DNA from: Vicinamibacteria bacterium
Lineage (GTDB): Bacteria; Acidobacteriota; Vicinamibacteria; Marinacidobacterales; Marinacidobacteraceae
Assembly: GCA_965215615.1 (NCBI GenBank)
Contig: OZ244068.1
Coordinates: 1,648,223-1,712,222 of the forward strand
DNA length: 64,000 nucleotides
Reading direction: 5' to 3'
Shown here piece by piece: positions 29,919 through 56,173 of this stretch. The translations under genes were made by a program, and so were the position numbers. Position 1 is the first letter of the stretch, and every line of letters starts with the position of its first letter. Below the pieces are notes generated by a model. The model made no database searches, was not told the DNA's origin, and saw only the letters and a program-made list of their open reading frames with translations.

Positions 29919-30679
29919 CGGCTGCGGAAATCCGGGACTCCGGCGACGACCAGATCGTCGTCGAAGCGCTCCCACTGCCAGCGGCGCAGGGAAACCGCGG
30001 CGGCGACCCGCGCGAGGGCCGGCTCTCCCCCGACGAGTCGGGGAGCGACGGTGATCACCGCGCAATCAGCCAGCCGGGCGGCGAAGAGCGAGGTGAGCAC
30101 CCGCCCTCCCCCTTCGACGAGCACCCGCCGGAATCCACGTTGCCAGAGGAGGCGCGCCAAAAGCGTCAGGGGAACCCTGCCGGCCCGATCCACCGGGAAT
30201 CGCAGGACGACGGCTCCCCGCTCCCGGAGCTGCTCTTCGGCCTCGGCGGGGGCATCTTCCGCAGCGGCGACCAAAAGGTTCCGCTTGTCGGGAATCCCCT
30301 TGAAAAGACGCGCTTCGAGCGGCAATCGCAACCGGCTGTCGAGGACGACCGGATCCGGGCTCTGGCCGGATGCCAGCCGGACATCGAGCCTCGGATCGTC
30401 GGAAAGCACCGTCCCGATTCCGACCAGGATGGCGTCGTGCTGGGAACGGAGCCGGTGGGTGAGTTCGAGGGCCGCGGAGCCGCTGAGTCGCAGCGGCTCG
30501 CTCGGGTTGGCGGCGATCGAGCCGTCGAGGCTCTGCGCGTAGGTGACGGTGATGGAGGGACGGCTCGGGCGACGACGACGCGCCCCTCCCACCAGCTCCC
30601 GGACGAGCGCTTCGATCCGGGAAGACGGCACCGCTTCGGAGGCCGGCCTCACTGCGGGTTTTCGGCCGGGTGCCACCAC
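29915..30679 (-). CDS. RibD C-terminal domain (DHFR-like) reductase
   Basis: 'ITVTYAQSLDGSIA...DAILVGIGTVLSDDPRL...RVLVEGGGRVLTSL' typical of 5-amino-6-(5-phosphoribosylamino)uracil reductase-like proteins; start uncertain. Confidence 0.65.
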   Translation of the reverse strand: MVAPGRKPAVRPASEAVPSSRIEALVRELVGGARRRRPSRPSITVTYAQSLDGSIAANPSEPLRLSGSAALELTHRLRSQHDAILVGIGTVLSDDPRLDVRLASGQSPDPVVLDSRLRLPLEARLFKGIPDKRNLLVAAAEDAPAEAEEQLRERGAVVLRFPVDRAGRVPLTLLARLLWQRGFRRVLVEGGGRVLTSLFAARLADCAVITVAPRLVGGEPALARVAAAVSLRRWQWERFDDDLVVAGVPDFRSR

Positions 30680-32868
30680 CCGATGTCGTCGAGCAGGACA
30701 TCACCCGCAACCGTCCCGCCAAAGGAGAACCGGACAGCCCGGACGAACACTTCGGCCTCGGTTCCGGTCAGCTCGCGAAGGGAGATGGCGCGCGCCTGGG
30801 GGATGGGCTCGGTCAGCCGCCGGTACCGCGCCCGGTTCATGCGCGCCGATTTCAGGAAACGCACTTCGAAGGCCGGTTCGGGAGAGGGGACGGCCACCGG
30901 CTGGAAGTCCGTCTCCTCGCAGGGAGTCTCGACGGGGACATCGGCCGGGCAATCGCCTTCGATGAGTTCCACGCTCATCGCGAGCGGAGGCGAGGGTTCG
31001 CCGCCCGTCCGGCCGGGTGTCCAGGTCACCGAGAAAACCAGCTCGTCGCTTCCATCGAGCCGCTGCGGTTCGGGAAACTGCAGTTCGTAGAAGGCCGGGG
31101 AAACGCTTTCGGCGATCCGGAGCCGCACCGCCGAGGTCGCCTGCTTCGAGCCGTCCCGGAACATCACTTCCTCTTCTCCCCATTCGGAAAACCCTTCGGC
31201 CTCGATGCGGATGCCCGGAGCGGTCCCGGAGACGAGATCGAGGTCTTCCTCGAACGTCGCAAGGTACGTGGTCTGTCCGTCCGCGTACTGGTTCTGGTAG
31301 GGAATGTCGGGCAGGAAGAGCATCCCCGCCCGGTAATCCCGGAGAAGCGGAAGCCATTCGGTCTCGCCCAGCAGGGTGACCCGGAGGAAGGCCGCGAGGT
31401 AGGAGCGGGCTACCTGTTGCTGGTCTTCCTCGGAGACGAGCGGTGTCCGGTTCAGATAGAGCGATCCGGGAAGGCCGGAATCCATGCCCCAGGTGCTGTT
31501 GAACTGCCCGTGGTTGCCTCCATGAAGGAGGATGCCCGCTTTCACGCCGTAGGGGATCGCGCCTTCGAGCGGCTCACCGCTGAACCGGACCCGGTGGTAC
31601 TGCCGCAACCCGTGGAAGCTCGGCTCGTCGGTGTCGTAGGAGCCGTGGATCGCGAGGAAATGCTTGTCCTCGAGGAACATCCGCCTCGAGTAGCGGCGAT
31701 CGATCTGGGCGATCGCGACGACGGCACGGATTCCGAATCCGTAGTCGAACTCCATCCCGGCGCGGTCGGGGAAGCGATCCAGATCGTTGAACACCGCCGC
31801 GATCGCCGCGGCTTCTCCGCCGCGGGAGTGGCCGACCAGAGCTACCTGGTCGAGATCGAGGCGCTGGTAGAGCGGGGAATCCGGGTCCATGTCCATCTCC
31901 CGGAGCGCCGCGAGGTGTTCGAGCAGCAAGATGCCGCGGGCGGGCATTTCCCGGCCCCCGAAATCACCGGACCAGGTTCCGTTCAGGAAGTTCGAGTCCA
32001 CGGAGATGCCCACGATCCCCATGCTCGCGAGCATCCCGGTCAGATAGCCGTATCCGTCGTCCGAAAAGTCTTCCATCGCGTGATTGCCGTGGACGATGAG
32101 GGCGACCGGATGCCGTTCCCCGGCCCCGCCTCGCGGCAGGTGCACCCGCCCGTTCACCGGCGCGTCGGAGATTCCGAAACCCCACCACCACTCCCGGTGA
32201 CTCGCGCGGAATCCGGCCCACTCCGGAAGCGCCGGGCCGAGATCCACCGGCTCGGTGCGGATATCGACGCGGGCACCGAACTCCTCGCGATGCGGATCTT
32301 CCCCGCTGCCGTAGGTGAGTGATTCGATCGGGCGGCGGCCCATTCCCGGATCGGCCTGAAGGATCACCGGAGCGCCTTCCCGATCGAGAGGCACCCGCGG
32401 GTACGGATCCGACCCGCTGTCGAAGAGCCACCAGATTCCCGGACCGAGCAGGAGGATGCCCCCGGAGAGGAGCAACCACCCGCCCCGCGTGCCGTAGCCC
32501 CCGTATCGCCCGAAGGACACCGAAAAACCCCAGCCGAGCAGGAAGGGGCCCCCCAGCGCGACGAGCAGGAACCAGAGGAACAACTCGTCCGGAACCCGCA
32601 GCAGATGGTTGCGCAGGAGCACGAGGCCGACCACCGAAGCGAGCGCGACGGCGATGGCGTCCGAACGCAGCCAATCCGCGTCGTGGAGCAGATTCCGGAT
32701 GAGAATCGCCGCGACGACCAGAACGACGATTCCGGCGAGAAGCGCCAGAAACGCCGTCAGGATGCCGAGCGCCCCCGGAGCGAACAGCAGCCCCCCCGTC
32801 ACGTACAGGAGCAGCGCGACGGTCGCCGCCGCCACGCCGCCGCCGCCGAGAACCCTGATGTCTCTCAT
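30649..32868 (-). CDS. membrane-anchored alpha/beta-hydrolase (lipase/esterase-like)
   Basis: Four to five N-terminal TM helices; 'GHSRGG' nucleophile elbow; 739 aa. Confidence 0.6.
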   Translation of the reverse strand: MRDIRVLGGGGVAAATVALLLYVTGGLLFAPGALGILTAFLALLAGIVVLVVAAILIRNLLHDADWLRSDAIAVALASVVGLVLLRNHLLRVPDELFLWFLLVALGGPFLLGWGFSVSFGRYGGYGTRGGWLLLSGGILLLGPGIWWLFDSGSDPYPRVPLDREGAPVILQADPGMGRRPIESLTYGSGEDPHREEFGARVDIRTEPVDLGPALPEWAGFRASHREWWWGFGISDAPVNGRVHLPRGGAGERHPVALIVHGNHAMEDFSDDGYGYLTGMLASMGIVGISVDSNFLNGTWSGDFGGREMPARGILLLEHLAALREMDMDPDSPLYQRLDLDQVALVGHSRGGEAAAIAAVFNDLDRFPDRAGMEFDYGFGIRAVVAIAQIDRRYSRRMFLEDKHFLAIHGSYDTDEPSFHGLRQYHRVRFSGEPLEGAIPYGVKAGILLHGGNHGQFNSTWGMDSGLPGSLYLNRTPLVSEEDQQQVARSYLAAFLRVTLLGETEWLPLLRDYRAGMLFLPDIPYQNQYADGQTTYLATFEEDLDLVSGTAPGIRIEAEGFSEWGEEEVMFRDGSKQATSAVRLRIAESVSPAFYELQFPEPQRLDGSDELVFSVTWTPGRTGGEPSPPLAMSVELIEGDCPADVPVETPCEETDFQPVAVPSPEPAFEVRFLKSARMNRARYRRLTEPIPQARAISLRELTGTEAEVFVRAVRFSFGGTVAGDVLLDDIGWWHPAENPQ

Positions 32869-33752: not shown

Positions 33753-33808
33753 GACCCGCCCATTGTACGGAGCCGGAGGGCCGGGTTCACCCGGCTAGAC
33801 TGGCCCGG

Positions 33809-34138
33809 ATGCCCGAAGCTCCTCGCGGGAAGTTCGGTCGCGTGCACCAGCTCGTCCGCCGGATTCCGGCCGGCCGGGTCACGAGCTACGGCCGCCTGGC
33901 CCGCGCGGTCAGCGCCGAAGGACACCCGCTTTCAGCGCGGGAGGCCGGCTGGGCCATGCGGAACTGCCCCGACGGGGTGCCCTGGCACCGGGTGGTGAAC
34001 GCGGCGGGCGAGCTCTCGGCAGAGGCGCGGGGCGGCTGTCCGCAGGGCCTTCAGCGAGCCCTCCTCGAACGCGAACGGGTTTTGTTCGATTCTCGCGGGA
34101 AAGTCCGGATGGATCTCCACCTCTGGGAGCCCGCCTGA
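33809..34138 (+). CDS. atl: alkyltransferase-like protein (MGMT DNA-binding domain without the catalytic Cys; PWHRV)
   Basis: 'TSYGRLA' and 'PWHRVVNAAG' where MGMT has PCHRV; 109 aa. Confidence 0.7.
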   Translation: MPEAPRGKFGRVHQLVRRIPAGRVTSYGRLARAVSAEGHPLSAREAGWAMRNCPDGVPWHRVVNAAGELSAEARGGCPQGLQRALLERERVLFDSRGKVRMDLHLWEPA

Positions 34139-34235
34139 CAGGCTGTGGAAAAACCAACCTGACGCGGCATTCGCCGGGCGGTCGGGCGGTTCCCTGTTAC
34201 CATTCCGCTTGTGGGATGGGTGCCATTGGTGGACC

Positions 34236-34268
34236 GACAATCTCCACCGACAATCCCCACCGACCCGC
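34236..34268 (+). repeat. tandem direct repeats (caccgacaatcYc x2.5) in the 5' region of the giant gene
   Basis: 'gaccgacaatctccaccgacaatccccaccgacc' read directly, ~150 nt upstream of the ATG. Confidence 0.8.
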
Positions 34269-34382
34269 ACGGGAAGAGGACAGAACAGAGTGAGACGAAT
34301 GGACAGACCGGCGGTATGTGCGCCGAACACCCCGCTACGCACTGCCGGGCGGCTCACGGATAGCTCGCAGATAGCCCCTCTT

Positions 34383-34403
34383 CCCCCCCCCCCCCCCCCC
34401 CCC
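34383..34403 (+). repeat. homopolymeric poly-C tract (21 nt) ending 5 nt upstream of the giant gene ATG
   Basis: Direct reading: C run 34383-34403, then 'gaaaa', then ATG at 34409; no SD-like purine run; in-frame TAG 48 nt upstream rules out an earlier start. Confidence 0.95.
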
Positions 34404-34408
34404 GAAAA

Positions 34409-37400
34409 ATGCGCGGTGTAAGGGGCTGGTTTCGTGGGCGGGTAGCCCTGTCATGCAGGAGTCTCCGGGGCGTTCTCGCCGCCGCGCTGCTGTTCGGCAT
34501 CGCCACCGCCGCCGAAGCGCAGACGACCGTCACTTTCGTAAGCAATCTGAATAGCGAAGGCGGAACCGACAATGCTAATACATTTAGAGATCGCCTAGCG
34601 CAATCCTTCACCACGGGTGCCAGCAGTGGCGGCTATCTCCTGTCGTCCGTCGAGATCTACCTCGGTAGAAATGCCTATGTAGGGGGCACCCCTGTGGTCG
34701 TCATCCGTGCGGACAGCAGTGGCGACCCCGGTGATGTCGTAGTCACCCTGACCAATCCGGGAAGCTATCCCGGAAGGCAAGATAGAGATGGGGGCACTGC
34801 CATCTTCACCGCCCCAGCGGGCACGACGCTCGCCGCGAGCACCACCTACTGGGTGGTCATCAACGACGAAGATCGAAGTCTTTTCTGGGCGAGCGCCTAC
34901 AGCAAAAACCACACGACGACGGGACTGCCCGGCTGGAGCATGGGTGGTACAAAGATACGTCGACAGGGTGCTACTAATTGGGCAACTTTTGACGACCTAC
35001 TACCGATGGAACTCAGCGGCACGGTGGTCACTGCCAGCGGCCCCGACGCCCCCGCGAACCTGCAGGCGGTGGTGAGCAGCGGCCAGGTGGAGTTGACATG
35101 GGATGACCCGTCGGACGACACGATCACGAAGTACCAGTACCAGCAGCGGACGCCTCCCAGCACCGGCACCTGGGGAGAGTGGACGGACATTTCGAACAGC
35201 GACGAGGACACCACCGATCACACGGTGACGGGGTTGACGAACGGCACGGAGTACGAGTTCGGGGTGCGTGCAGTGGCGGGGAGCACGAACGGCACGGCGG
35301 CCACGGTGAGCGCGACGCCCGTCGCCCCACCGGCAGCGCCGACGAGCCTGACGGCCAGGGCGGGTGCCACCCAGGTCACGCTGAGCTGGACCGACCCGGG
35401 CAACGCCACGATCACGAAGTACCAGGTGCGTTACGGCGCGGGCCTGACCACCGATTCGGGCTTCAGTTGGGGGACGTGGGCAGACGTTTCGAGCAGCAGC
35501 GCGACCACCACGAGCGCCACGGTGACCGGGCTGACGAACGGCACGGAATACACCTTCGGGGTCCGCGCCGTCGGCCTTTCGGGGGATGGCGCGGAGGCGA
35601 CGGTGTCGGCGACGCCTTTGGCCTCGGGCGCCCCGGCCAAGCCGACGGGCCTGACGGCGACAGCGGGCGGTAGCAGCGTCACCCTGAGCTGGACCGCCCC
35701 GAGCGGCACGATCACGAAGTACCAGGTCCGTCAGGGGACGGGCGATCCGGTCATGTGGGGGGCGTGGGCGGACATCACGGGCACCACGAGCCACACGGTG
35801 ACGGGCCTGACGAACGGCACGGAATACAGCTTTCAGGTGCGCGCGGTGGCGAACACGGTGCTGGGTGCGATGTCGGACACGGCGTCCGCGACGCCGAACG
35901 CCCCGCCGGCGGCGCCCGCCGGCTTGAAGGCCGAGGCGTACCCCGCCGAGATCAGACTGGAGTGGACCGAGCAGACCGACGACACCATCACCGGGTACCA
36001 GTATCAGACCCGCGCCAGAAGCGAAGGCGACTGGGGCGACTGGAGCGGCTGGAGCAATGTGCCCCTCGGCGAAGTCGGCGAGGATGACAAGGTCTTCAGC
36101 TTTTCGGGCAAGAGCTATTACAAGGTGGCCGACCTGACCAACGGCACCGAGTACGGCGTCCGGATCCGGGCGGTGGCCGGAACGGTGCCCGGCGCGGCGT
36201 CGGCCATCGTGACCGGGACTCCGAACGTCCGGCCGCTCGCGCCCACGGGCCTGAGCGCCACGGCGGGCGACGGGCAGGTCAGCCTGACGTGGGACGATCC
36301 CTCGAACGCCGCGATCACCAAATACCAGGTGACTTACGAGGTGGTCGCCACGAGCGTGCCCGCGACGGAGGACGTCCCGGTCAACGGCGCCACCACCAGC
36401 CACACCGTGACGGGCCTGGTGAACGGCACCCTGTACAGCTTCGAACTCGTCCCCTTCGCCGGCACGGTGTCGGGCCCGTCTTCGGGCAAGGTGCGGGCGA
36501 CCCCGACGGCCCCGGCGGGCCTGACGCTGACGCAGCCGGACGACAGGCAGGTGGACGAGGGCGACACCGCGGACACGGCAACCTTCACGGTCGCGCTGAG
36601 GAGCTTGCCGGCCGCGGACGTGATGGTGACGGTGACCGCCCCCGCCGGGCTGGAACTCGACGGCCCGGATGCCGGCGGCGTGTTTGCTTCCAGCGAGGAC
36701 CTCGCCTTCACCACCGCGAACTGGAACAGCGCGCAGACGGTGACGGTGCGCGCCACCGACGACAGCACGGACAGCCCGAGCGGGCGGGAAGAGGTCATCG
36801 CCTGGTCCGCGACCTCGACGGACACCGACTACAGCGGCCTGAAAGGCGATGCGGCCACCGTCACGGTGGTGGACAACGACCCGACGACGGTGACGCTCGC
36901 GGGCGCCGCCGGGGATGTGACCGAGGGCGGGACGAAGGACTTCACCGTCACCCTGGGGCGCGGCCTGGTGAGCGGCGAGAGGCTGGTGGTGCCGCTGACC
37001 TTCGGCACCGGCACCGGCACCGCGACGCGGAACACGGACTACACGGTGGCGTGCCCCTCGCCGCTGCCGGACGGGGCCGGAGTGGTCTGCGCGAACCTGA
37101 ACACCGGAAACGCGGCGTTGACCTTCGCCGGTCCGAGCATGGGGGAGACGTTGAAGGAGGTGACGCTGACGCTGAGTGCGGCGAGCGACAACACGACCGA
37201 AACGGGCGGCGAGACGGTGATCATCGGCCTCGGCACGCTGAACGCGAGTTCGGGGACCGGTCTGGAGGGCGGGGCGAGCGGCACCGACAGCCTGGCGGAC
37301 TTCAAGATCACCGACCCGGACGCGAGTGTGCCGACGGTTGCGATCACCGGGATCCCGGCGAAGATCAACAACACGAACGCGCTGACGGCGACCTTCACCT

Positions 37401-40400
37401 TCTCGGAGGCGGTGACGGGCTTCGAGAAGGCCGACATCACGGTGACGGGCGGCACGGCGGGCACGTTCTCGGCGACGAGCACGACGGTCTATACGCTCGG
37501 GATCACTCCCGACGGCGATGCGAACGTGGTGGTGACGGTGGCGGCGAACAGCGCGACCGACGGCACGAACATGGGCCCGGCGAGCGCGGAGAGTGCGACG
37601 GCCGTGTGGGACGAGACGGCGCCGACGGTCGAGATCACCGGGGTACCCGGCAAGATCAGCAACCGCGATGCGTTCACCGTGACCTTCAGCTTCTCGGAGA
37701 CGGTGACGGGCTTCGACACGGACGATGTCAGCGTCACGAACGGCGACAAGAGCGCGTTCTCGGGCAGCGGCAGCAGCTATACGGTGGTGGTGACCCCGAA
37801 TGCCGACGCGGACGTGACGGTGACGGTGGCCGCGGGCGGCGCAACCGACGGGTTGAACACCGGCCCGGCGAACGCGGTGAGCGCGACGGCCACCTGGGAT
37901 GCGAGCGTGCCGACGGTCGAGATCAGCGGGGTACCGAAGAGGATCACGACCCGCGCCGCGTTCACGGTGACGTTCACCTTCTCGGAGTCGGTGACGGATT
38001 TCGTGACCGGCGATGTCACGGTCACGAACGGCGACAAGAGCTCGTTCACGGGCAGCGGCAGCAGCTATACGGTGGTGGTGACCCCGAATGCCGACGCGGA
38101 CGTGACGGTGACGGTGGATGCGAACTCGGCGACGGACGGCACGAACACCGGCCCGACGGCCGATGTGGTCGCGACCGCGGTGTTCGGCGCGCCGGCGGCG
38201 CCGACCGTGACGGCGACGGCGGGGAACGGTCAGGTCACTCTGAGCTGGACCGACCCGTCCGACGACACGATCACTGAGTACGAGTATCAGCAGCGGGAGG
38301 AGGGCGGCACCTGGCCGAACAGCTGGACGGACATCGCGAACAGCGCGAGTCTCACCGAGTACGCGGTCACCAGCCTGACGAACGGGACGACCTACGAGTT
38401 CCGGGTCCGCGCCGTGTCCGGGACGGTGACCAGCCCGGCCTCGAGCGTCGTGACCGCGACGCCTCTCGCGGCGACCGCCCCCGGCCCGCCGCGGGACCTG
38501 AGGGTCGCGCCGGGCGACGGGCAGGTCGTTCTGAATTGGCGTGTCCCCGGAACCAACGCCGACGCGATCACGAAGTACGAGTTCCGCCAGGGAACGGGCG
38601 ACCCCCTCGCCTGGGGTGCGTGGGGGGACGCCTCCGGCACCACCACGAGCCACACGGTGACGGGCCTGACGAACGGCACGGAATACAGCTTTCAGGTGCG
38701 CGCGGTGGCGAACACGGTGCTGGGTGCGATGTCGGACACCGTGGAAGCGACTCCCAACCCGGTACCGGCCGCCCCGACGAACTTCACGGCCACGAAGGGG
38801 ACAGCCAGCGGCGCTATCGCCCTGAGCTGGACCGCCCCGAGCGGCACGATCACCAGGTATGAATACCGGCTCCGCCCTGTCGGTGGTGACTGGCCACAAA
38901 GCTGGACCCGCTTGACTGTCCTCGTCACCAGCTTCACGGTGGGGAGCCAGACGGACGGCACGGAGTACGAGATCGAACTCCGCGCCGTCAACGATTCGGG
39001 CGCGGGTGCCGCCGCCAGCGCGACCGCGACCCCGTTGGACCCGACCGCCGCGGCGGCGCCGACGAGCTTCACGGCGACGGCGGGGAGCGGTCAGGTCGCT
39101 CTGGCATGGACGGCCCCGAGCGGCACGATCACGAAGTACCAGGTGCGGCAGGGGACGGGCGATCCGGTCGTGTGGGGGGCGTGGGCGGACATCACGGGCA
39201 CCACGAGCCACACGGTGACGAGTCTGACGAACGGCACGGAATACAGCTTCCAGGTGCGTGCGGTGACCGGGACTTCGGTGCTGGGTGCGATGTCGGCGAC
39301 CGCGACGGCGACGCCGACGGCCGCGCCGGGGGTGACGATCTCGGTGACGGACGCGTCGGTGAGCGAGGCCGACCAGACGGACACGGCGACCTTCACGGTG
39401 GTGCTGAACACGGAGCCGTCGTCGGGGCTGGTGGTCGTGAGCGTGGATGCAAGCGGAGCCCCCGGGCTGGAGCTCGACGGCCCGGACGCCCCCACTGCGT
39501 TCAGCAACGCCGAGGTCCTGACGTTCACCACCACGAACTGGAACAGCCCGCGGACGATCAGGGTGCGCGCCACTTCCGAGGCCACGGACAACCCGAGCGG
39601 CCGGGAGGAGACGATCACCTGGACCGCGACTGCGACCGCGGATACCGACTACCAGAACCTGACCGGGGATGCGGCGACGGTCACGGTGGTGGACAACGAC
39701 CCGACGACGGTGACGCTCGCGGGCGCGGCGGGGGATGTGGCCGAGGGGGCGACGAAGACCTTCACGGTGACCCTGGGCCGGGGTCTGGTGGACGGCGAGA
39801 CGCTCGGGGTGCCGCTGGCCTTCACCGGTACCGCGACGCGGGGCACGGACTACATGACGGCGTGCCCGACGACACTTCCGACCGGGGTGACCTGTAACGA
39901 CCTCGACGACACGAGCCTGACCCCGACGGTGACCTTCACGGGGCCGACCTCGGGGGCGACGGCGCGGACGGTGACGCTGACGCTGAGTGCGGCGAGCGAC
40001 AACACGACCGAAACGGGCGGCGAGACGGTGATCATCGGCTTCGGCACGCTGACGGCCACCGGTCTGGAGGGTGGCACGAGCACCACCGACAGCCTGGCGG
40101 ACTTCAAGATCACGGACCCGGACGCGAGTGTGCCGACGGTTGCGATCACCGGGATCCCGGCGAAGATCAACAACACGAATGCGCTGACGGCGACCTTCAC
40201 CTTCTCGGAGGCGGTGACGGGCTTCGAGAAGGCCGACATCGCGGTGACGGGCGGCACGGCGGGCACGTTCTCGGCGACGAGCACGACGGTCTATACGCTC
40301 GGGATCACTCCCGACGGCGACGCGAACGTGGTGGTGACGGTGGCGGCGAACAGCGCGACCGACGGCACGAACATGGGCCCGGCGAGCGCGGAGAGTGCGA

Positions 40401-43400
40401 CGGCCGTGTGGGACGAGACGGCACCGACGGTGGAGATCACCGGGGTACCCGGCAAGATCAGCAACCGCGATGCGTTCACCGCGACCTTCAGCTTCTCGGA
40501 GACGGTGACGGGCTTCGACACGGACGATGTCAGCGTCACGAACGGCGACAAGAGCGCGTTCTCGGGCAGCGGCAGCAGCTATACGGTGGTGGTGACCCCG
40601 AATGCCGACGCGGACGTGACGGTGACGGTGGCCGCGGGCGGCGCAACCGACGGGTTGAACACCGGCCCGGCGAACGCGGTGAGCGCGACGGCCGTGTGGG
40701 ACGAGACGGCGCCGACGGTGGATATCACCGGGATACCGGCGAAGATCAACAACACGAATGCGCTGACGGCGACCTTCACCTTCTCGGAGTCGGTGACGGG
40801 CTTCGCGAAGAGCGACATCACGGTGACGGGCGGCACGGCGGGGGCGTTCGGGGGCAGCGGCACCACCTATACGCTCGCGATCACCCCGACGAGCGGTTCG
40901 AACGTGGTGGTGACGGTGGCTGCGAACAGCGCGACCGACGGCACGAACATGGGCCCGGCGAGCGCGGAGACGGCGACGGCCACCTGGGATGCGAGCGTGC
41001 CGACGGTCGGGATCACCGGGGTGCCGGCGCGGATCAGCGGCACGAGCGACCTGACGGCGACGTTCACCTTCTCGGAGGATGTCACGGGCTTCGTGAAGAA
41101 CGACATCACGGTGACGGGCGGCACGGCGGGCACGTTCACGGAGAGCAGTTCCACGGTCTATACGCTCGTGATCACCCCCGACGGCGACGCGAACGTGGTG
41201 GTGACGGTGACGGCGGACAGCGCGACCGACGGGTTGAACATGGGCCCGGCGAGCGCGGAGACGGCGACGGCGGTGTGGACCGCCCTGGTCTTCAACCCGG
41301 CGGCGGTGACCGTGGTCGAGGAGGCGAGCGCGACCTACACGGTGGAACTCTCGAGCCAGCCCGATGGGAACGTCACGGTGACGGTCTCGGGGGCGAGCGG
41401 GGAGGTGACGTTCGACACCGACTCCACGACGCCGGGCACCCAGACGACGGCGCTGACCTTCACGACGACCACCTGGGACGATGCGCAGACGGTGACGGTG
41501 TTGGCGGCGGCCGACGGCGACACGGCGAACGACAGCGCGACGCTGACGCACACCGCGTCGGGCGGCGGGTACGGCTCGGTGACCGGGGATGTGGAGGTGA
41601 CGGTGACCGACAACGACACGCCGGGTCTCGTCCTCGATCCGACGAGCCTGACGGTGGCGGAGGGCGGCAGCGGCACCTACACGGTGGCGCTCGCGACCCA
41701 GCCGACGGCGAGCGTGACGGTGACGGTCGCGGGGGCGAGCGGCGAGGTGACGTTCGACACCGACGGCGACACGGGCGGCAACCAGAACACGCTGACCTTC
41801 ACGACGAGCGACTGGGGCACGGCGCAGACGGTGACGGTGTCGGCGGGTCAGGACAACGATGCCGACGACGACAGCGCGACGCTGACGCACAGCGCGTCGG
41901 GTGGCGGCTACGGCTCGGTGACCGGGAACGTGGCGGTGACGGTGACCGACGACGACACGGCGAGCGTGGTCACGACAGAACCCGACGCGACGGCGACCGA
42001 GGGCAGCACCACGGACGAGGCGACCTTCACGGTGGCGCTGAACACCCGGCCGTCGAGCGATGTCACGGTGACGGTGACCGCGCCGACGGGTCTGACGCTC
42101 GACGGCCCGGACAGCGCCACCACGTTCACGAGCAGCGAGGGCCTCACCTTCACCAGCACGAACTGGAGCACGGCGCAGACGGTGACGGTGCGCGCGACCG
42201 ACGACAACGATGACAGCCCGATCGGTCGGGAACTGACGGTCACCTACGCCGTGACTTCGTCGGACAGTGGCTACAGCGGCCTGAGCGGGGATGCGGCGAC
42301 GGTCACGGTGGTGGACGACGACCCGACGACGGTGACGCTCGCGGGCACTGCCGGGGATGTCGTGGAGGGCGGGACGAAGACCTTCACGGTCACGCTGGAG
42401 CGCGGCCTCGTGAACGGCGAGACGTTGCCGGTGCCGCTGACCTTCGGCGGGGACGCGACGCGGGGCACGGACTACACGACGGCGTGTCCCACGACACTGC
42501 CGACGGGGGTGACCTGCGCGAACCTCGACTCGGGGACCCCGACGGTGACCTTCACGGGGCCGAGCACGGGGGCGACGGCGACGACGGTGACGCTGACCTT
42601 GACGGCGACGACGGACAACACCGCGGAGGCGGGCGGCGAGTCGGTGGTCATCGGCCTCGGCACGCTGAACGCGAGTTCGGGGACCGGTCTCGGGGGCGGC
42701 GCGAGCGGCACCGACAGCCTGGCGGACTTCGACATCACCGACCCGGACGCGAGCGCGCCGACGCTCGAGATCAGCGGGGTACCGAAGAGGATCACGACCC
42801 GCGCCGCGTTCACGGTGACGTTCACCTTCTCGGAGTCGGTGACGGACTTCGTCACCGGCGATGTCACGGTCACGAACGGCGACAAGAGCTCGTTCACGGG
42901 CAGCGGCAGCAGCTATACGGTGGTGGTGACCCCGAATGCCGACGCGGACGTGACGGTGACGGTGGATGCGGACTCGGCGACGGACGGCACGAACACCGGC
43001 CCGCCGGCCGATGTGGTCGCGACCGCGGTGTTCGGCGCGCCGGCGGCGCCGGCCAGTCTCTCCGCCACGGCGGGCAACGCCGCGGTCACCTTGAGCTGGA
43101 CCGACCCGATGGACGACACGATCACCGGGTACGAGTTCCGTCAGGGTGTCCAGAGTTCGCCCGTCACCTGGGGCAGCTGGACGCCCATCACGAACAGCGA
43201 CAAGGACACCACCTCCCACACGGTGACGGGTTTGACCGACGGCACGGAGTACTACTTCCAGGTCCGCGCGGTGTCCGATGCGGTGATGGGCGAGCCCTCG
43301 GCCGAGGAGAACCGGGACGCGGTGGTAACACCGGTGGCGGTGAACGCGCCGGCGGCGCCGACGGGCCTCGGGGCGACGGCGGGCAACGGCCAGGTGGCCT

Positions 43401-46400
43401 TGAGCTGGACGGCCTCGAGCAGCAACGGCATCACGAAGCACCAGGTGCGCAGCGGATCGGGCGATCCGCTCGTCTGGGGGAGTTGGACGGACATCGCGAA
43501 CAGCGCCAGTATCACGAGCCACACGGTGACGGGGCTGACGAACGGGACGGAGTACAGCTTCCAGGTGCGCGCGGTGGCGACGGCGGTGCTGGGTGTGACG
43601 TCGGACACGGCGGTCGCGACCCCGAGGGGTGCCGCGGGCGTGACGACGACGCAGCCGAGCGACCGGCAAGTGACCGAGGGTGACACTTCGGACACGGCGA
43701 CCTTCACGGTGGAACTCGACACCCAGCCGTCGAGCGATGTCACGCTGACGGTCGAGGCTGTCGCCGGGCTGGAACTCGACGGCCCGGACGGCGCCACCGC
43801 GTTCACGGCGAGCGAGGCGCTGACCTTCACGAGCAGCAACTGGGGCACGGCGCAGACGGTGACGGTGCGCGCCACGGACGACAGTGTTGACAGGCCCAGC
43901 GGGGGCGATCTGACCGTGAGCTACTCGATAGCATCGTCGGACAGTGGCTACAACTTGCTCTTCGGTGTGGCCGCCCTCGTCACCGTCATCGACAACGACC
44001 CGACCGCGGTGACCCTTGCGGGGGCCGCCGGGGACATCACCGAGGGCGAGACGAAGGACTTCACCGTCACGCTGGGCGTGCGCGGTCTGGTGAGCGGCGA
44101 GACGCTCGGGGTGCCGCTGACCTTCACCGGTGGCGCGACGCGGGGCACGGACTACACGACGGCGTGTCCCTCGTCGCTGCCGACCGGGGTGACGTGTAAC
44201 GACCTGAACACGGCGGCGACTCCGACCGTGACCTTCACCGGGCCGAGCACGGGGGAGACGGCGCGGACGGTGACGCTGACGCTGAGTGCGGCGACGGACA
44301 ACACGGCCGAGACGGGCGGCGAGACGGTGATGATCGGCCTCGGCACGCTGACGGCTACCGGTCTGGAGGGCGGGGCGAGCGGCACGGGCAGTCTGGCGGA
44401 CTTCCGGATCACCGACCCGTCGGCGACGGACACGACGGTACCGACGCTTTCGATCTCGGGAGTACCGGGGACGATCAGCACGAGGGCGGCGTTCACGGCG
44501 AACTTCACCTTCAGCGAGTCGGTGACGGACTTCGATACGAACGACATCACGGTGACCGGCGGGAGCAAGGGCACGCTCTCGGGCAGCGGGAGGAGCTACC
44601 GGATGCGGATCACGCCGACCGGCGGGGTGAACGTGGTGGTGACGGTGCGTCGAAATGCGGCGACCGACGGCACGAACCGGGGCCCGGCGGCGGCGGTGTC
44701 GCGGACCGCGACCTGGCGTGCCCCGAGTCCGCCGCCGCAGCAGCCGCCAGCGGAGGAAGACGACGACGATCCGCCTTCTTCCGGTGGTGGCGGCGGTGGT
44801 GGGGGTAGTACCCCGTCCCTCCCCTCGGCTTCTCTGTCCGCCGTCTCGGTGAGCGCGGGGCAGATGGTGATCGAGGGCGGCGAGGCGCTGTTCCGGATCA
44901 CCGCGAGTCCGGTGCCGAGCGACGAGATCACGGTGCGGGTGCGGGTGTCGGCGACGGGCGACTTCGTGGACGGGGTGCAGCTCGGCGAGCGGCTCGTCAC
45001 GCTCTCGGCTTCGGCGCCCACGGCGAGTCTGCGGGTAGCCACCATCGATGACCGCCGGAACGAGGCGGACGGGACGGTGACGGTGACGGTGCTTTCGGGC
45101 GAGGACTACCGCCTGTCGCAGGCCTCGGCCTCGCTCGCGGTCACGGACGACGACACGCCCGCGCTGGTCCTGACTCCGGAGACGCTGACGGTGGACGAGG
45201 GCGGCAGCGGGAACTACCGGGTGGCGCTCGCCACCGAACCCGCCGGCGATGTGACGGTGAGCATCGCGGGCACGGGTGAGGTGACGACGGCGCAGAACAC
45301 GCTGACCTTCACCGCGGGGAACTGGAACGTGGCGCAACCGGTGACAGTGTCGGCGGGGCAGGACGCGGATGCGGCGGACGACCGGGCGAGACTGGATCAC
45401 CGCGCGAGCGGCGGCGGCTACGACTCGGTGACCGGCAGCGTGGCGGTGACCGTCATGGACGACGACACGCCGGGCCTGATCCTGACTCCGGCGGCGCTGA
45501 CGCTGGCGGAAGGCGCGAGCGCGAGCTACACGGTGGCACTCGCCACCGAGCCGACGGGGAACGTGACGGTGAGCATCGCGGGCACGGGCGATGTGACGGT
45601 GGACCGGAGCACGCTGAGCTTCACCGCCCGGAACTGGAGCGCGGCGCAGACGGTGACGCTCTTCGCGGCGCGGGACGAGGATGTGGCGAACGACAGCGCG
45701 ACGCTGGCGCACCACGCACGGGGCGGTGACTACTCATCGGTCACCGGCAGCGTGGAGGTGACGGTGACGGATGCGGGCGCGGCGGTGGTGTCGGCGCATC
45801 TGGCACGGTTCGGCCGGACGGTGGCGGAGCAGGCGCTCGACGGGATCGCGGGAAGGCTGCGGGCGCCGCGCACGGCGGGGATGCAGAAGACGCTCGCAGG
45901 TCCCCGCCTGAACGTTCCGCGCGAAGGAGATACGGCGCAGGGCACGATGCACGCCGAGGCGCGGAGGACCGGCTTCGAGAACGAGTACGAGAGCCAAAAC
46001 CGCGACCTGCTGCACCTCCCGAACGCCCGGGAAATGCTGCTCGGGTCGAGCTTCACGCTCACGACCCAGGAGGCGGAGGGAACCGGGGGCAGCTTCGCCT
46101 TCTGGGGCCGGGCGAGCGCGAACCGCTTCGACGGCGCCACGAACGACGGAGCCACGGCGATCGGCCTCGACGGCGAGGTGCTGACGGGTCTCGTGGGCGC
46201 GGACTATGCGCGGGGCGACTGGCTCTTCGGCCTGGCGCTGACCCACAGCCTCTCCGAGGGGGGCTACACCAGCGAAGGTGCCAGCGGCGGCAAGGTGGAT
46301 GCGTCGCTGACGGCGGCGCTGCCGTATGCGTCGATCCAGGCGAACCCGCGGCTGAAGCTCTGGGGTGCGGGCGGCTACGGCATCGGCGAGGTGACGCTCA

Positions 46401-47212
46401 AGACCGGAGGCGAGAGCCACCGGGCGGACACCGACTGGACGATGGCGGCGGCGGGAATACGGGGAGACCTGCTGGATCCGGCGGGCGGGCCGCTCGCGGT
46501 AGCGGTGATCGGCGACGGACTGTGGACGCGGAGCACATCGGATGAGATCGCCGCGCTTTCGACGGCGGATACCTTCGTGACCCGGCTGCGGCTCGGGGTG
46601 GAGGCCAGCTACGACTTCAACTTCGACGGCATGGGCGATCTCACGCCGCGGGTGGAAGCGGGCGCCCGCCACGACGGGGGCGATGCGGAGACCGGGGCCG
46701 GGATGGATCTCGGTGTCGGAATCAACTGGAAGGCACCGGTCTTCGGATTGAGCCTCGATGTCGCGGGACGGATGCTGATCCTCCACGAGAACGAGGACTT
46801 CGCGGACCGGGGGATTTCGGCGGCGGTGGTCTTCGACCCGAACCCGGAGAGCGAGCGGGGGCCGTCGCTTTCGCTGCGCCAGGCGATCGGCGGGAGCGCC
46901 GACGGGGGGATCGAGGCGCTGTTCGCGACGACGACCCCACTCGGCGACGGCGGGAACATCGGGAGCGGAGCGGGAATGCGACGGACGCTTGAGACCGCGT
47001 ACGGCTTCTCCGCCTTCGGGGGGCGCTTCACGGCGAGTCCGCACGCCGAGGTGGACTTCACGGAGCGGGCGCGGGACTACGCGCTCGGCTGGCGGTTCGT
47101 GCCGCACAAGCTGGCATCGGACCTCGCGTTCGGCATCAAGGCCACCCGCCGGGAAGGCGAGACCCTGGCCCCGGTGCACGTCTTCGGGGTCGAGGCCACC
47201 GTGCGCTGGTGA
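34409..47212 (+). CDS. giant (4267 aa) autotransporter-like surface adhesin with FN3, Ig-like and Calx-beta-like repeat arrays and a C-terminal outer-membrane beta-barrel
   Basis: Single 12,804-nt ORF; signal peptide ending AEAQT; >15 FN3-like modules ('TITKYQVR...GTEYSFQVRAV'); Calx-beta-like 'VTVVDNDPTTVTLAG' modules; Ig-like 'PTVAITGIPAKINN...' modules; last ~450 aa autotransporter-type barrel ending 'VEATVRW'. Confidence 0.9.
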   Translation: MRGVRGWFRGRVALSCRSLRGVLAAALLFGIATAAEAQTTVTFVSNLNSEGGTDNANTFRDRLAQSFTTGASSGGYLLSSVEIYLGRNAYVGGTPVVVIRADSSGDPGDVVVTLTNPGSYPGRQDRDGGTAIFTAPAGTTLAASTTYWVVINDEDRSLFWASAYSKNHTTTGLPGWSMGGTKIRRQGATNWATFDDLLPMELSGTVVTASGPDAPANLQAVVSSGQVELTWDDPSDDTITKYQYQQRTPPSTGTWGEWTDISNSDEDTTDHTVTGLTNGTEYEFGVRAVAGSTNGTAATVSATPVAPPAAPTSLTARAGATQVTLSWTDPGNATITKYQVRYGAGLTTDSGFSWGTWADVSSSSATTTSATVTGLTNGTEYTFGVRAVGLSGDGAEATVSATPLASGAPAKPTGLTATAGGSSVTLSWTAPSGTITKYQVRQGTGDPVMWGAWADITGTTSHTVTGLTNGTEYSFQVRAVANTVLGAMSDTASATPNAPPAAPAGLKAEAYPAEIRLEWTEQTDDTITGYQYQTRARSEGDWGDWSGWSNVPLGEVGEDDKVFSFSGKSYYKVADLTNGTEYGVRIRAVAGTVPGAASAIVTGTPNVRPLAPTGLSATAGDGQVSLTWDDPSNAAITKYQVTYEVVATSVPATEDVPVNGATTSHTVTGLVNGTLYSFELVPFAGTVSGPSSGKVRATPTAPAGLTLTQPDDRQVDEGDTADTATFTVALRSLPAADVMVTVTAPAGLELDGPDAGGVFASSEDLAFTTANWNSAQTVTVRATDDSTDSPSGREEVIAWSATSTDTDYSGLKGDAATVTVVDNDPTTVTLAGAAGDVTEGGTKDFTVTLGRGLVSGERLVVPLTFGTGTGTATRNTDYTVACPSPLPDGAGVVCANLNTGNAALTFAGPSMGETLKEVTLTLSAASDNTTETGGETVIIGLGTLNASSGTGLEGGASGTDSLADFKITDPDASVPTVAITGIPAKINNTNALTATFTFSEAVTGFEKADITVTGGTAGTFSATSTTVYTLGITPDGDANVVVTVAANSATDGTNMGPASAESATAVWDETAPTVEITGVPGKISNRDAFTVTFSFSETVTGFDTDDVSVTNGDKSAFSGSGSSYTVVVTPNADADVTVTVAAGGATDGLNTGPANAVSATATWDASVPTVEISGVPKRITTRAAFTVTFTFSESVTDFVTGDVTVTNGDKSSFTGSGSSYTVVVTPNADADVTVTVDANSATDGTNTGPTADVVATAVFGAPAAPTVTATAGNGQVTLSWTDPSDDTITEYEYQQREEGGTWPNSWTDIANSASLTEYAVTSLTNGTTYEFRVRAVSGTVTSPASSVVTATPLAATAPGPPRDLRVAPGDGQVVLNWRVPGTNADAITKYEFRQGTGDPLAWGAWGDASGTTTSHTVTGLTNGTEYSFQVRAVANTVLGAMSDTVEATPNPVPAAPTNFTATKGTASGAIALSWTAPSGTITRYEYRLRPVGGDWPQSWTRLTVLVTSFTVGSQTDGTEYEIELRAVNDSGAGAAASATATPLDPTAAAAPTSFTATAGSGQVALAWTAPSGTITKYQVRQGTGDPVVWGAWADITGTTSHTVTSLTNGTEYSFQVRAVTGTSVLGAMSATATATPTAAPGVTISVTDASVSEADQTDTATFTVVLNTEPSSGLVVVSVDASGAPGLELDGPDAPTAFSNAEVLTFTTTNWNSPRTIRVRATSEATDNPSGREETITWTATATADTDYQNLTGDAATVTVVDNDPTTVTLAGAAGDVAEGATKTFTVTLGRGLVDGETLGVPLAFTGTATRGTDYMTACPTTLPTGVTCNDLDDTSLTPTVTFTGPTSGATARTVTLTLSAASDNTTETGGETVIIGFGTLTATGLEGGTSTTDSLADFKITDPDASVPTVAITGIPAKINNTNALTATFTFSEAVTGFEKADIAVTGGTAGTFSATSTTVYTLGITPDGDANVVVTVAANSATDGTNMGPASAESATAVWDETAPTVEITGVPGKISNRDAFTATFSFSETVTGFDTDDVSVTNGDKSAFSGSGSSYTVVVTPNADADVTVTVAAGGATDGLNTGPANAVSATAVWDETAPTVDITGIPAKINNTNALTATFTFSESVTGFAKSDITVTGGTAGAFGGSGTTYTLAITPTSGSNVVVTVAANSATDGTNMGPASAETATATWDASVPTVGITGVPARISGTSDLTATFTFSEDVTGFVKNDITVTGGTAGTFTESSSTVYTLVITPDGDANVVVTVTADSATDGLNMGPASAETATAVWTALVFNPAAVTVVEEASATYTVELSSQPDGNVTVTVSGASGEVTFDTDSTTPGTQTTALTFTTTTWDDAQTVTVLAAADGDTANDSATLTHTASGGGYGSVTGDVEVTVTDNDTPGLVLDPTSLTVAEGGSGTYTVALATQPTASVTVTVAGASGEVTFDTDGDTGGNQNTLTFTTSDWGTAQTVTVSAGQDNDADDDSATLTHSASGGGYGSVTGNVAVTVTDDDTASVVTTEPDATATEGSTTDEATFTVALNTRPSSDVTVTVTAPTGLTLDGPDSATTFTSSEGLTFTSTNWSTAQTVTVRATDDNDDSPIGRELTVTYAVTSSDSGYSGLSGDAATVTVVDDDPTTVTLAGTAGDVVEGGTKTFTVTLERGLVNGETLPVPLTFGGDATRGTDYTTACPTTLPTGVTCANLDSGTPTVTFTGPSTGATATTVTLTLTATTDNTAEAGGESVVIGLGTLNASSGTGLGGGASGTDSLADFDITDPDASAPTLEISGVPKRITTRAAFTVTFTFSESVTDFVTGDVTVTNGDKSSFTGSGSSYTVVVTPNADADVTVTVDADSATDGTNTGPPADVVATAVFGAPAAPASLSATAGNAAVTLSWTDPMDDTITGYEFRQGVQSSPVTWGSWTPITNSDKDTTSHTVTGLTDGTEYYFQVRAVSDAVMGEPSAEENRDAVVTPVAVNAPAAPTGLGATAGNGQVALSWTASSSNGITKHQVRSGSGDPLVWGSWTDIANSASITSHTVTGLTNGTEYSFQVRAVATAVLGVTSDTAVATPRGAAGVTTTQPSDRQVTEGDTSDTATFTVELDTQPSSDVTLTVEAVAGLELDGPDGATAFTASEALTFTSSNWGTAQTVTVRATDDSVDRPSGGDLTVSYSIASSDSGYNLLFGVAALVTVIDNDPTAVTLAGAAGDITEGETKDFTVTLGVRGLVSGETLGVPLTFTGGATRGTDYTTACPSSLPTGVTCNDLNTAATPTVTFTGPSTGETARTVTLTLSAATDNTAETGGETVMIGLGTLTATGLEGGASGTGSLADFRITDPSATDTTVPTLSISGVPGTISTRAAFTANFTFSESVTDFDTNDITVTGGSKGTLSGSGRSYRMRITPTGGVNVVVTVRRNAATDGTNRGPAAAVSRTATWRAPSPPPQQPPAEEDDDDPPSSGGGGGGGGSTPSLPSASLSAVSVSAGQMVIEGGEALFRITASPVPSDEITVRVRVSATGDFVDGVQLGERLVTLSASAPTASLRVATIDDRRNEADGTVTVTVLSGEDYRLSQASASLAVTDDDTPALVLTPETLTVDEGGSGNYRVALATEPAGDVTVSIAGTGEVTTAQNTLTFTAGNWNVAQPVTVSAGQDADAADDRARLDHRASGGGYDSVTGSVAVTVMDDDTPGLILTPAALTLAEGASASYTVALATEPTGNVTVSIAGTGDVTVDRSTLSFTARNWSAAQTVTLFAARDEDVANDSATLAHHARGGDYSSVTGSVEVTVTDAGAAVVSAHLARFGRTVAEQALDGIAGRLRAPRTAGMQKTLAGPRLNVPREGDTAQGTMHAEARRTGFENEYESQNRDLLHLPNAREMLLGSSFTLTTQEAEGTGGSFAFWGRASANRFDGATNDGATAIGLDGEVLTGLVGADYARGDWLFGLALTHSLSEGGYTSEGASGGKVDASLTAALPYASIQANPRLKLWGAGGYGIGEVTLKTGGESHRADTDWTMAAAGIRGDLLDPAGGPLAVAVIGDGLWTRSTSDEIAALSTADTFVTRLRLGVEASYDFNFDGMGDLTPRVEAGARHDGGDAETGAGMDLGVGINWKAPVFGLSLDVAGRMLILHENEDFADRGISAAVVFDPNPESERGPSLSLRQAIGGSADGGIEALFATTTPLGDGGNIGSGAGMRRTLETAYGFSAFGGRFTASPHAEVDFTERARDYALGWRFVPHKLASDLAFGIKATRREGETLAPVHVFGVEATVRW

Positions 47213-47347: not shown

Positions 47348-47944
47348 ATGACCGACGAAAAAATGACCGACGCAGAGCTGAAAGCGCTGGTTGCTGGCCT
47401 GGCCACGGCGCAGGACCGCACCGATGCCCAGATGGCGAAGACCGATGCCAAGATCGACCGGCTGGTGGACCGAATTGCGGAGACCGAGGTCCTGGTGAGG
47501 GAAACCTCCGTCGAAATCAAAGAGCTGTCGAAAATGTACGGCGGTGCCAGCAACAACCTGGGCGCGGCGGTCGAGGAGTTCTTCTACAACAGCCTCAAGG
47601 CCCATCCGGTTCTCGGTGGGGTGCGCTTCGAATCCGTCGAAAGGAACGTCCCGGGCCGCGACGACAAAACCGGCCAGAAGGACGAGTTCGACCTGCTGCT
47701 CGTGAACGGCAGCGAGGTGTTCGTCGTGGAGGTGAAGCACAGGGCGCACAAGGACGACCTGAAGGACCTGCTGGACGAGAAGGCACCGAACTCCCGGCGG
47801 ATGTTCCCGAAGTACGCCGGCCACCGGCACCGGTTCGCTCTCGCCACGTTCCACATCCATGACGAACTGAAGGAGTCGGCTCTGGAGAAGGGGGTGACCG
47901 TGCTGCAGCGCAAGGGCGACGTGATCGAAACCTCCCCGGCCTGA
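47348..47944 (+). CDS. hypothetical protein: N-terminal coiled coil plus C-terminal PD-(D/E)xK-like nuclease fold
   Basis: N-terminus is a heptad-like K/E/D-rich helix; C-terminal 'DEFDLLLVNGSEVFVVEVKHR' fits a D...E-x-K restriction-endonuclease-like core. Confidence 0.5.
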   Translation: MTDEKMTDAELKALVAGLATAQDRTDAQMAKTDAKIDRLVDRIAETEVLVRETSVEIKELSKMYGGASNNLGAAVEEFFYNSLKAHPVLGGVRFESVERNVPGRDDKTGQKDEFDLLLVNGSEVFVVEVKHRAHKDDLKDLLDEKAPNSRRMFPKYAGHRHRFALATFHIHDELKESALEKGVTVLQRKGDVIETSPA

Positions 47945-55867: not shown

Positions 55868-56081
55868 CGCGCGGAGCGTTGCTGATTTCGCCTACGCGAC
55901 GCGGCCTGTCGCGGTGGCCCCGGCTTGATCTGGCGGCAGAGAGGCGGGCCACTCGCTCGGCGATGGCGTGGATGCCATGACGGATCGCCTGACGTTCCTT
56001 GCTGGCGGTCCGCTGCCCGGTGAGGATGAGCCCGGCAAGACTCACCCCGACGGCGAGGATGGCGTAGAACTCGGGGGTCAT
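55797..56081 (-). CDS. possible small membrane protein (hypothetical, weak)
   Basis: ORF with an N-terminal TM helix 'EFYAILAVGVSLAGLILTG'; no clear RBS; overlaps the vapC-like 3' end. Confidence 0.2.
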   Translation of the reverse strand: MTPEFYAILAVGVSLAGLILTGQRTASKERQAIRHGIHAIAERVARLSAARSSRGHRDRPRRVGEISNAPRVSASRAGGLGRGTARWSDPRSVG

Positions 56082-56173
56082 GCGCTGAATCGTACGCCGA
56101 CCCCCCTTTCTGTCAGCACTCGTGAGACACTCGGCCGGATATGGTCAGAACAGTATATCGTCCGCGTCGCCGG

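Follow-up and report, generated by a model that had tools for sequence, protein, structure and literature searches.

The window analysed here is a 64-kb stretch from a Vicinamibacteria bacterium (contig OZ244068.1, positions 1,648,223 to 1,712,222) with a GC content of ~67%, in a genome of ~3.0 Mb, and our subject is the giant adhesin gene that it carries on the + strand at 34409-47212. The open reading frame (ORF) is intact and encodes 4,267 amino acids, and the exact protein is recorded on a 3.0-Mb contig. GC at codon positions 1, 2 and 3 is 0.59, 0.59 and 0.91; the value at third positions (GC3) marks the + frame as the coding frame, and an antisense ORF of 3,571 codons was rejected by the same codon-position analysis as a high-GC artefact. 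An earlier note on this DNA had read the gene as a modular, autotransporter-like adhesin whose near-identical repeats invite recombination. We consider it likely that the gene encodes a giant, size-variable surface fibre with an autotransporter-type anchor and recombining modules.

The protein comprises ~34 adhesion-type domains, namely 11 FN3, 9 Big_12 and 13 Calx-like beta-sandwich domains plus a head. Together they make up a passenger of ~3,750 residues, a beads-on-a-string array and not a beta-helix. In the Pfam scan, fn3 scored 364 bits over 11 stretches and Big_12 288 bits over 9 stretches; both exceeded the curated cut-offs, which establishes membership in FN3 (PF00041) and Big_12 (PF19078), and nothing else was convincing. 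Segments without a Pfam assignment were delimited by in-house profiles. The protein begins with a predicted Sec-type signal peptide (34409-34519, residues 1-37) that has a basic n-region, a hydrophobic core and an AEA/Q cleavage site (...ATAAEA/QTT), all read from the sequence; it is kept in the ortholog of a sister genome described below. The N-terminal head (34520-35047, residues 38-213) is a putative beta-sandwich of the PHR or carbohydrate-binding-module (CBM) type, for which we found no Pfam match and only 13 detectable homologs. One of these homologs is a free-standing version of the head at locus L002 (10001-10900), on a 2.4-Mb contig of a metagenome-assembled genome (MAG) marked circular, as a 299-aa secreted protein made of the head and one Big_12 domain; its identity to the head of the giant protein is 58%.

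Behind the head follow five FN3 domains (35048-36466, residues 214-686; Pfam fn3, with unit borders from the architecture) and the first Calx-like pair, consisting of a CxA and a CxB domain (36506-37333, residues 700-975; in-house profiles and hhalign). The array continues with three Big_12 units (B1.1-B1.3, 37318-38184), four FN3 domains (38189-39274, residues 1261-1622), the second Calx-like pair (39326-40135), four Big_12 units (B2.1-B2.4, 40120-41274) and two CxA-related domains called S23 (41282-41962), which share 35-37% identity with CxA in full-length alignment. After the third pair (41960-42760) come a single Big_12 unit (B3.1, 42745-43032), two FN3 domains (43046-43585), the fourth pair (43631-44434) and the last Big_12 unit (B4.1, 44428-44715). 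Throughout, FN3 and Big_12 units are those matched by Pfam, and the second to fourth pairs rest on in-house profiles. A Pro/Asp/Gly linker then contains a run of eight glycine codons (GGTGGTGGCGGCGGTGGTGGGGGT), located exactly at 44783-44806 as the earlier note had stated. It leads to a membrane-proximal stalk of three Calx-like domains (44816-45784), one Calx-beta-like and two S23, which is ~95% identical in a related locus, L001, and 88-99% identical in the sister. The C-terminal 480 residues complete the protein. The four super-repeats of FN3 arrays, Calx-like pairs and Ig-like modules proposed earlier are correct by this architecture. Many CxA and S23 domains terminate in acidic junctions of the D-x-D type (..VVDNDPT or ..TDDDTP), which suggests Ca2+-stiffened linkers like the Ca2+-binding junctions of other adhesin rods.

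The relation of the Calx-like domains to Calx-beta was examined separately. With hmmscan, Calx-beta (PF03160) gave nothing in the giant protein even at E<=10; neither an autotransporter nor a Calx-beta match came from scanning the full-length protein and five excised segments against Pfam and NCBIfam; and profiles built from the repeat alignments retrieved no NCX or integrin Calx-beta chain from the PDB, only chance antibody matches. Most relatives carry a genuine Calx-beta domain directly before the anchor, and hhalign against these domains gave CxA/S23 a probability of 74% over 79 columns; the domain after the linker reached 63% and CxB 4%. The description "Calx-beta-like" is weakly supported, by profile-profile comparison for two domain types, but not for CxB and not by the Pfam and PDB searches. 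"Calx-like" is a reasonable nickname; membership in Calx-beta is not established.

Comparison of the gene with itself yielded 52 significant off-diagonal alignments. Many repeats share 70-90% DNA identity and most repeat pairs fall at 60-88%, as expected of old duplicates, and it could be argued from this that the repeats are relics of old duplications under purifying selection, without ongoing recombination or functional size variation. Two blocks stand apart. The first covers B1.1-B1.2 (37282-37891) and B2.1-B2.2 (40084-40693), 2.8 kb downstream, with 603 of 610 positions identical (98.9%); five of the seven mismatches are synonymous, and identity drops abruptly on both sides. The near-identity of ~600 bp reported before (37282-37884 against 40084-40686) amounts to 596 of 603 positions within this true block of 610 nt. 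The second block pairs B1.3 (37897-38206) with B3.1 (42745-43054), 4.8 kb downstream, at eight mismatches in 310 nt (97-98% identity). Here the earlier match of ~290 bp is real (285 of 290 between 37917-38206 and 42765-43054), with slightly misplaced limits for the partner (42770-43045).

Other claimed similarities were overstated in degree. FN3 pieces called near-identical reach 92-95% over 90-180 nt, but identity falls to 84-90% in wider stretches and does not exceed 86% for complete units. The Calx-like segments resemble one another as described, but at 83-86.5% across 300 nt and 75-78% for the two-domain unit as a whole, not 85-90%. Identity is indeed unequal along the duplication shared by super-repeats 1 and 2, but it follows a discrete, sharp-edged tract and not a slope: ~75-83% in the Calx-like part, ~99% across Big_12 units 1 and 2, then ~70%.

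Among the nine Big_12 units, three DNA pairs (B1.1 and B2.1, B1.2 and B2.2, B1.3 and B3.1) are each 98-99% identical, against 70-88% for the other unit pairs and 75-78% for the adjoining upstream Calx-like pairs of the same super-repeats. This pattern is incompatible with chance, and the contrast with the background points to recent gene conversion or partial duplication and not to one old block duplication. Since B2.1-B2.2 shows an ordinary 90-95% identity to the sister ortholog, it is likely the older donor and B1.1-B1.2 the recent copy, the likely acceptor. Selection at the protein level cannot account for three pairs with 98-99% DNA identity at synonymous sites when neighbouring modules of the same super-repeat stand at 75-78%. 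In addition, the lengths of three close relatives lie hundreds of residues apart, and the breakpoints fall at module borders. We thus regard the view of the repeats as mere relics as highly improbable.

The size variation predicted from the repeats could be followed in a sister genome. Exact-sequence look-ups of the flanking genes led to a 2.9-Mb contig, named circular at 170x coverage, that carries their orthologs; both sides of the locus were fetched and the ortholog was reconstructed. The flanks match the window at 96.8% identity upstream and 95.4% downstream, and the syntenic ortholog encodes 5,082 aa, compared with 4,267 aa here. Homology continues through the signal peptide to 34524, breaks right after it, and resumes in collinear order at 37902, the border of Big_12 units 2 and 3, 11 nt past the end of the 99% tract. 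The non-collinear stretch measures 3.4 kb here and 5.9 kb in the sister, where it encodes another head, of 38% identity, one more Ig-like domain, a genuine Calx-beta domain and a further copy of the 4.3-kb central block that is 91% identical to its twin. The collinear 3' 9.3 kb are ~92% identical overall, a mosaic of 94-99% with patches near 69%.

A third relative, P0268 (3,990 aa), has an anchor 96% identical to that of the giant protein and the same proximal core. Its head is a third variant, which shares 43% and 35% identity with the other heads, and its number of FN3 domains differs. The shared core runs from a Calx-like pair through four Big_12, two S23, a second pair, one Big_12 and two FN3 domains to a further pair, one Big_12, the linker, the stalk and the barrel. 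The glycine tract counts 8 residues here, 7 in the sister and 11 in P0268. Locus L001, on a contig of 3x coverage, has in common with the window only the last 3.1 kb of the gene (95%) and the downstream NERD gene (93.5%); its remaining passenger is shorter and different, as are its flanks. No close relative was seen among the JGI metagenome contigs scanned. From the shared proximal core and the differing heads and modules we conclude that the distal fibre is variable and the anchor-proximal part conserved. Recombination, gene conversion and size variation, as foreseen in the earlier note, are supported by the Big_12 pairs, the 5,082-aa ortholog, the 3,990-aa relative and the glycine tracts.

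Blocks of 310-610 bp that are 97-99% identical and lie 2.8-4.8 kb apart could mislead a short-read assembler, and the gene as written might then be a product of repeat collapse or chimeric joining that does not exist. Against this, the frame is open over 12.8 kb with a GC3 of 0.91, the copies differ at seven and eight positions, mostly synonymous, and the gene-bearing contig is 3.0 Mb long. Moreover, the 3' 9.3 kb, including the donor copy, are ~92% collinear with the independently assembled 2.9-Mb contig, named circular at 170x. Sponge holobiont genomes have been assembled from PacBio HiFi reads with metaMDBG (PMC12859430), and the contig names of related records follow that style; such reads would span the repeats. 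An assembly artefact is therefore very unlikely.

The C-terminal anchor begins with a conserved junction helix (45767-45862) that contains ..AHLARFGRTVAEQALDGIAGRL.., a motif near-invariant in the family. In an AlphaFold (AF2) model of the anchor, built on a 46-sequence alignment and with an overall predicted local distance difference test (pLDDT) score of 76, a helix is followed by a beta-meander. The 32-residue helix occupies model residues 2-33 (pLDDT 80-92); a low-confidence linker follows (45863-46087; pLDDT <50 at model residues 46-89), variable in length across the family and with Gly-rich inserts in homologs. The predicted autotransporter-type outer-membrane beta-domain (46088-47209, ~374 aa) ends in ..FGVEATVRW and contains 18 strands as assigned by DSSP; the first ~ten of them have pLDDT 85-97, the later ones 54-82. 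Tight superposition on complete 12-stranded barrels suggests a core of the autotransporter type to which this family has added ~120-160 residues. The earlier reading of a C-terminal barrel and an autotransporter-like protein stands on these grounds, as an atypical variant.

Homologs connect this anchor to known autotransporters. A word-indexed search returned at least 677 matches at E<=1e-3; the best 120 of these are 40-58% identical to the anchor, except one at 96%, and all 120 share the near-invariant junction "DP(M/L)PAAWLARFGRTVAEQALDGI.GR". Neither of the two word-indexed adhesin-domain searches listed a protein longer than ~850 aa, so that the giant protein itself and its giant relatives were missed; these were obtained through exact look-ups, the representative search and GTDB loci. 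An exhaustive search gave 6,479 representative clusters with E<=1e-3, 2,531 of them with E<=1e-30, and in proteins of ~500-7,200 aa the domain always lies at the extreme C-terminus. The curated threshold of PF03797 (26 bits) is passed by 5 of 46 aligned members, a set that includes the window's own protein, itself without a match, and by further homologs, with scores of 28-53 bits. These positive homologs are 44-58% identical to the anchor of the giant protein, which argues for homology by transitivity, with an atypical C-terminal third. Searches of PDB sequences with the C-terminus, the family profile and a PF03797-positive homolog (phmmer and hmmsearch) found no autotransporter; their sole matches, NCX Calx-beta chains, were caused by upstream alignment columns and were discarded.

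Among GTDB species representatives, the anchor family occurs at 441 loci or more. The best 80 of these are all from MAGs and fall into at least seven phyla (Pseudomonadota, Spirochaetota, Binatia, Nitrospirota, Acidobacteriota, Gemmatimonadota and Thermodesulfobacteriota); several representative genomes carry multiple copies. Where the 5' end was captured, open frames range from ~880 to 3,840 aa, the longest filling the fetched flank. The names of several MAGs match sponge studies (RHO, COS, CAR and SB bins, Ca. Poriferihabitaceae; PMC8163846; PMC12859430). Genes of the FN3, cadherin and Calx-beta classes are reportedly enriched in sponge symbionts, with lateral transfer reported for the first two (PMC8163846; PMC11706023), and a survey of sponge MAGs noted that few lineages encode classical secretion systems (PMC8163846). 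In the literature we found no description of this shared C-terminal anchor or of an export route for the adhesion-domain proteins of sponge symbionts. The family appears to be how bacteria of many phyla, several of them from sponges, display FN3, Calx and Ig arrays on the surface.

Immediately upstream of the gene, a tract of 21 cytosines on the + strand (34383-34403) stops 5 nt short of the ATG. The window contains no other homopolymer of at least 8 nt, and the counterparts of the tract are a C23 tract at the same place in the sister genome and a C15 tract (5440-5454) upstream of the L001 gene. Elsewhere in the family, 57 loci with a complete 5' end were compared, and a tract of this kind lies near the start in just two of them, which makes the poly-C a feature of this lineage. 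Both the window and the sister have a small upstream frame that translates the tract as poly-proline and extends over the start codon; its distance to the ATG differs by 6 nt between the two, so the frame relation is kept, which could be coincidence. The tract resembles homopolymer contingency loci and is a candidate slipped-strand switch that may turn expression on and off or grade it.

The region that holds the tract at its 3' end (33753-34408) is unusually long (~650 nt) and non-coding, with ~92% conservation in the sister; it yielded neither an Rfam family nor a sigma-70-like promoter or terminator. A divergent 293-aa gene call upstream in the sister is probably over-extended, and because its first 155 residues match the window in three shifting frames, we treated the region as non-coding. 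Around the giant gene as a whole, searches for a sigma-70-like promoter and an intrinsic terminator were likewise negative. Homopolymers of at least 9 nt are otherwise rare in the fetched loci (13 in 1.39 Mb); very long ones beside the gene were seen at L075 (4397-4478, G46 plus C14), L073 (5892-5914, C23) and L069 (11658-11681, C24).

We propose the following working model, in which the steps of export are drawn by analogy with type Va secretion. The gene would encode a giant cell-surface fibre of an uncultured Gram-negative bacterium. The Sec signal peptide would direct the protein to the periplasm, and the C-terminal beta-domain, with its aromatic beta-signal ..VRW at the end, would insert into the outer membrane via the beta-barrel assembly machinery (BAM) and export or anchor the ~3,750-residue passenger. 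The lectin- or CBM-like beta-sandwich head would then sit at the distal tip, and the fibre would likely serve in adhesion, either to other cells or to a polymer of the host or matrix. Because the modules repeat at 70-99% DNA identity, homologous recombination and gene conversion would keep reshuffling the gene in frame; between relatives, comparison at the sequence level shows such in-frame reshuffling. The poly-C tract upstream of the start would add on/off or graded control of expression.

In support of the type Va comparison, the protein combines a Sec signal peptide with a C-terminal aromatic beta-signal (..VEATVRW), both read from the sequence, and no separate transporter partner gene, whether Omp85/TpsB or ATP-binding cassette (ABC)/membrane fusion protein (MFP), was found among the ORFs scanned at ~26-63 kb of the window. 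Several points weigh against the overall interpretation. The last 480 residues have no PF03797 match, only OMP_b-brl at E=0.01, and neither PF03797 nor TIGR-type autotransporter models nor PDB sequence searches match the giant protein directly. Even in the positive homologs, the PF03797 match covers profile positions 1-207 of 255 only and is followed by ~170 further residues. The beta-domain is atypical, with ~120-160 extra residues and 18 DSSP strands versus 12, and the helix does not join strand 1 directly, as ~75 low-confidence residues of family-variable length lie between them. A stable Ig-like passenger is unusual for type Va. The difference between 21 and 23 cytosines could be a homopolymer consensus error. 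Finally, adhesion, Ca2+ binding, surface exposure and the poly-C effect are all inferred, as is the sponge origin of this genome, for which the relatives are the basis.

As an alternative, the barrel might be an anchor without self-export, with the passenger reaching the surface by another route and the likeness to type Va confined to the level of the fold. We consider this unlikely, though less so than an assembly artefact. Type I-secreted, two-partner-secreted and inverse-autotransporter readings were rejected on domain order and gene context. For a type I-secreted repeats-in-toxin (RTX) adhesin in particular, there were no RTX- or LapA-type matches and no adjacent genes of a type I secretion system (T1SS), and both the signal peptide and the C-terminal barrel speak against it. 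We retain the autotransporter-type surface fibre as the preferred reading.

Several known systems share parts of this design. Structurally closest are the type Va autotransporters (AIDA-I, EspP, Hbp, NalP, EstA, BrkA). However, PF03797 does not detect the giant protein, its beta-domain is ~100 residues longer, ~75 disordered residues separate the helix from strand 1, and its passenger is an array of FN3, Ig and Calx-like domains in place of an enzyme or beta-helix. Inverse autotransporters (type Ve: intimin, invasin) likewise combine an outer-membrane barrel, a tandem Ig-like rod and a lectin-like tip, but their barrel is N-terminal and their tip C-terminal, the reverse of the order here, and Pfam found no LysM or Big_1 domain in our protein. 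Type I-secreted repeat adhesins (LapA, SiiE, MpIBP, BapA) resemble it in thousands of residues of beta-sandwich modules, acidic Ca2+-type junctions, a distal ligand-binding region and repeat-number differences among strains. In contrast, LapA-type proteins lack a Sec signal peptide and have a C-terminal RTX/T1SS signal and an adjacent ABC/MFP/TolC operon, whereas the giant protein has a signal peptide, a C-terminal barrel and no nearby transporter genes. By analogy, the giant protein would function like other giant repeat adhesins, with a passenger of the inverse-autotransporter or RTX-adhesin kind.

In the group B streptococcal alpha C protein and staphylococcal SasG/Aap, near-identical intragenic repeats also recombine in frame and alter protein length. 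Those are single-unit tandem arrays anchored to a Gram-positive wall, while here blocks of several module types are shuffled and heads are swapped. Homopolymer contingency loci (the Bordetella fim poly-C promoters, Neisseria opc and porA) have a long C or G tract just upstream of a surface-protein gene, and the tract described here is similar in its conserved position and its differing length between relatives. In Bordetella and Neisseria, however, the tract sits in a mapped promoter spacer, whereas here it abuts the start codon. The eukaryote-like adhesion proteins of sponge symbionts (FN3, cadherin, Calx-beta) match in domain content, and relatives of our gene come from MAGs of sponge studies; the papers on those symbionts give domain counts (PMC8163846, PMC11706023).

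Intragenic repeats are ordinary in giant adhesins, and length variation among strains is their textbook consequence. What goes somewhat beyond ordinary adhesin biology is the atypical, widespread anchor, the swapped heads and the poly-C tract. Here the predicted size variation was verified through an independently assembled sister genome and a third relative, and it is the distal half of the fibre, including the binding head, that turns over, while the membrane-proximal half is kept. The anchor family is large (~2,500 representative clusters) and goes mostly undetected by standard domain models; it is relevant to the question of how "eukaryote-like" proteins get from sponge symbionts to the host interface. 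The poly-C tract offers a handle on whether expression of the fibre switches within a symbiont population.

Taken together, these observations allow a wider interpretation, which we put forward tentatively and hold to be possible but doubtful: the family may be an unrecognised subclass of type V secretion, laterally spread, that serves as a common anchor in sponge symbionts and here carries a variable fibre. Under this proposal, the subclass would be distinguished by an autotransporter-type core with ~120-160 extra residues and by the conserved junction helix "DPxPAAWLARFGRTVAEQALDGI", held at a distance by a variable disordered linker. Lateral transfer would have carried it across at least seven phyla of sponge-dwelling bacteria, and it would be the common export-and-anchor module for the "eukaryote-like" FN3, Calx and cadherin arrays of sponge symbionts. 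In the lineage studied here, head swapping, module shuffling and the poly-C switch might then jointly produce a variable fibre at the host interface.

The neighbours of the giant gene are a predicted membrane-anchored hydrolase, a small membrane protein, a NERD-domain protein, a GH109 protein and an amidohydrolase. In the hydrolase (30649-32868, - strand; 739 aa), several transmembrane segments at the N-terminus precede a part that resembles alpha/beta-hydrolases and contains the nucleophile motif GHSRGG; the protein is without a Pfam match and is kept in the sister genome at 90% identity or more. Directly downstream of the adhesin gene, the small NERD-domain gene (47348-47944) travels with the adhesin 3' end, its L001 counterpart lying at 12451-13161. 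A second NERD protein (296 aa, at least 90% identity) is recorded on the same 3.0-Mb contig, which suggests a duplicated cassette of adhesin 3' end and NERD gene, that is, a paralogous adhesin locus elsewhere in the genome; an exact look-up of such a second NERD-linked paralog in the same genome returned no record. No rRNA or tRNA genes were found within the window. For polyphosphate kinase, the closest named matches share no more than 44-47% identity.

Two short ORFs at 15661-16107 (- strand) resemble the collapsed remains of another family member. One ends in "..ASDLAFG..VHIFGIEATVRW*", matching the last strands of the giant protein with 79% DNA identity over 103 nt, and the other contains the signal-peptide-like "..LLLGLAPGAEAQTT". 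The pair is probably a pseudogene left by deletion of nearly the entire coding region. Further along the window, GC falls to 0.55 at 56000-58000, compared with ~0.67 elsewhere, around a 501-aa ORF (56174-57679, - strand). The matching interval of the sister genome holds PhdYeFM/PIN toxin-antitoxin genes, and its collinearity with the window is interrupted at ~56100-58494; the region may be a strain-specific insertion.

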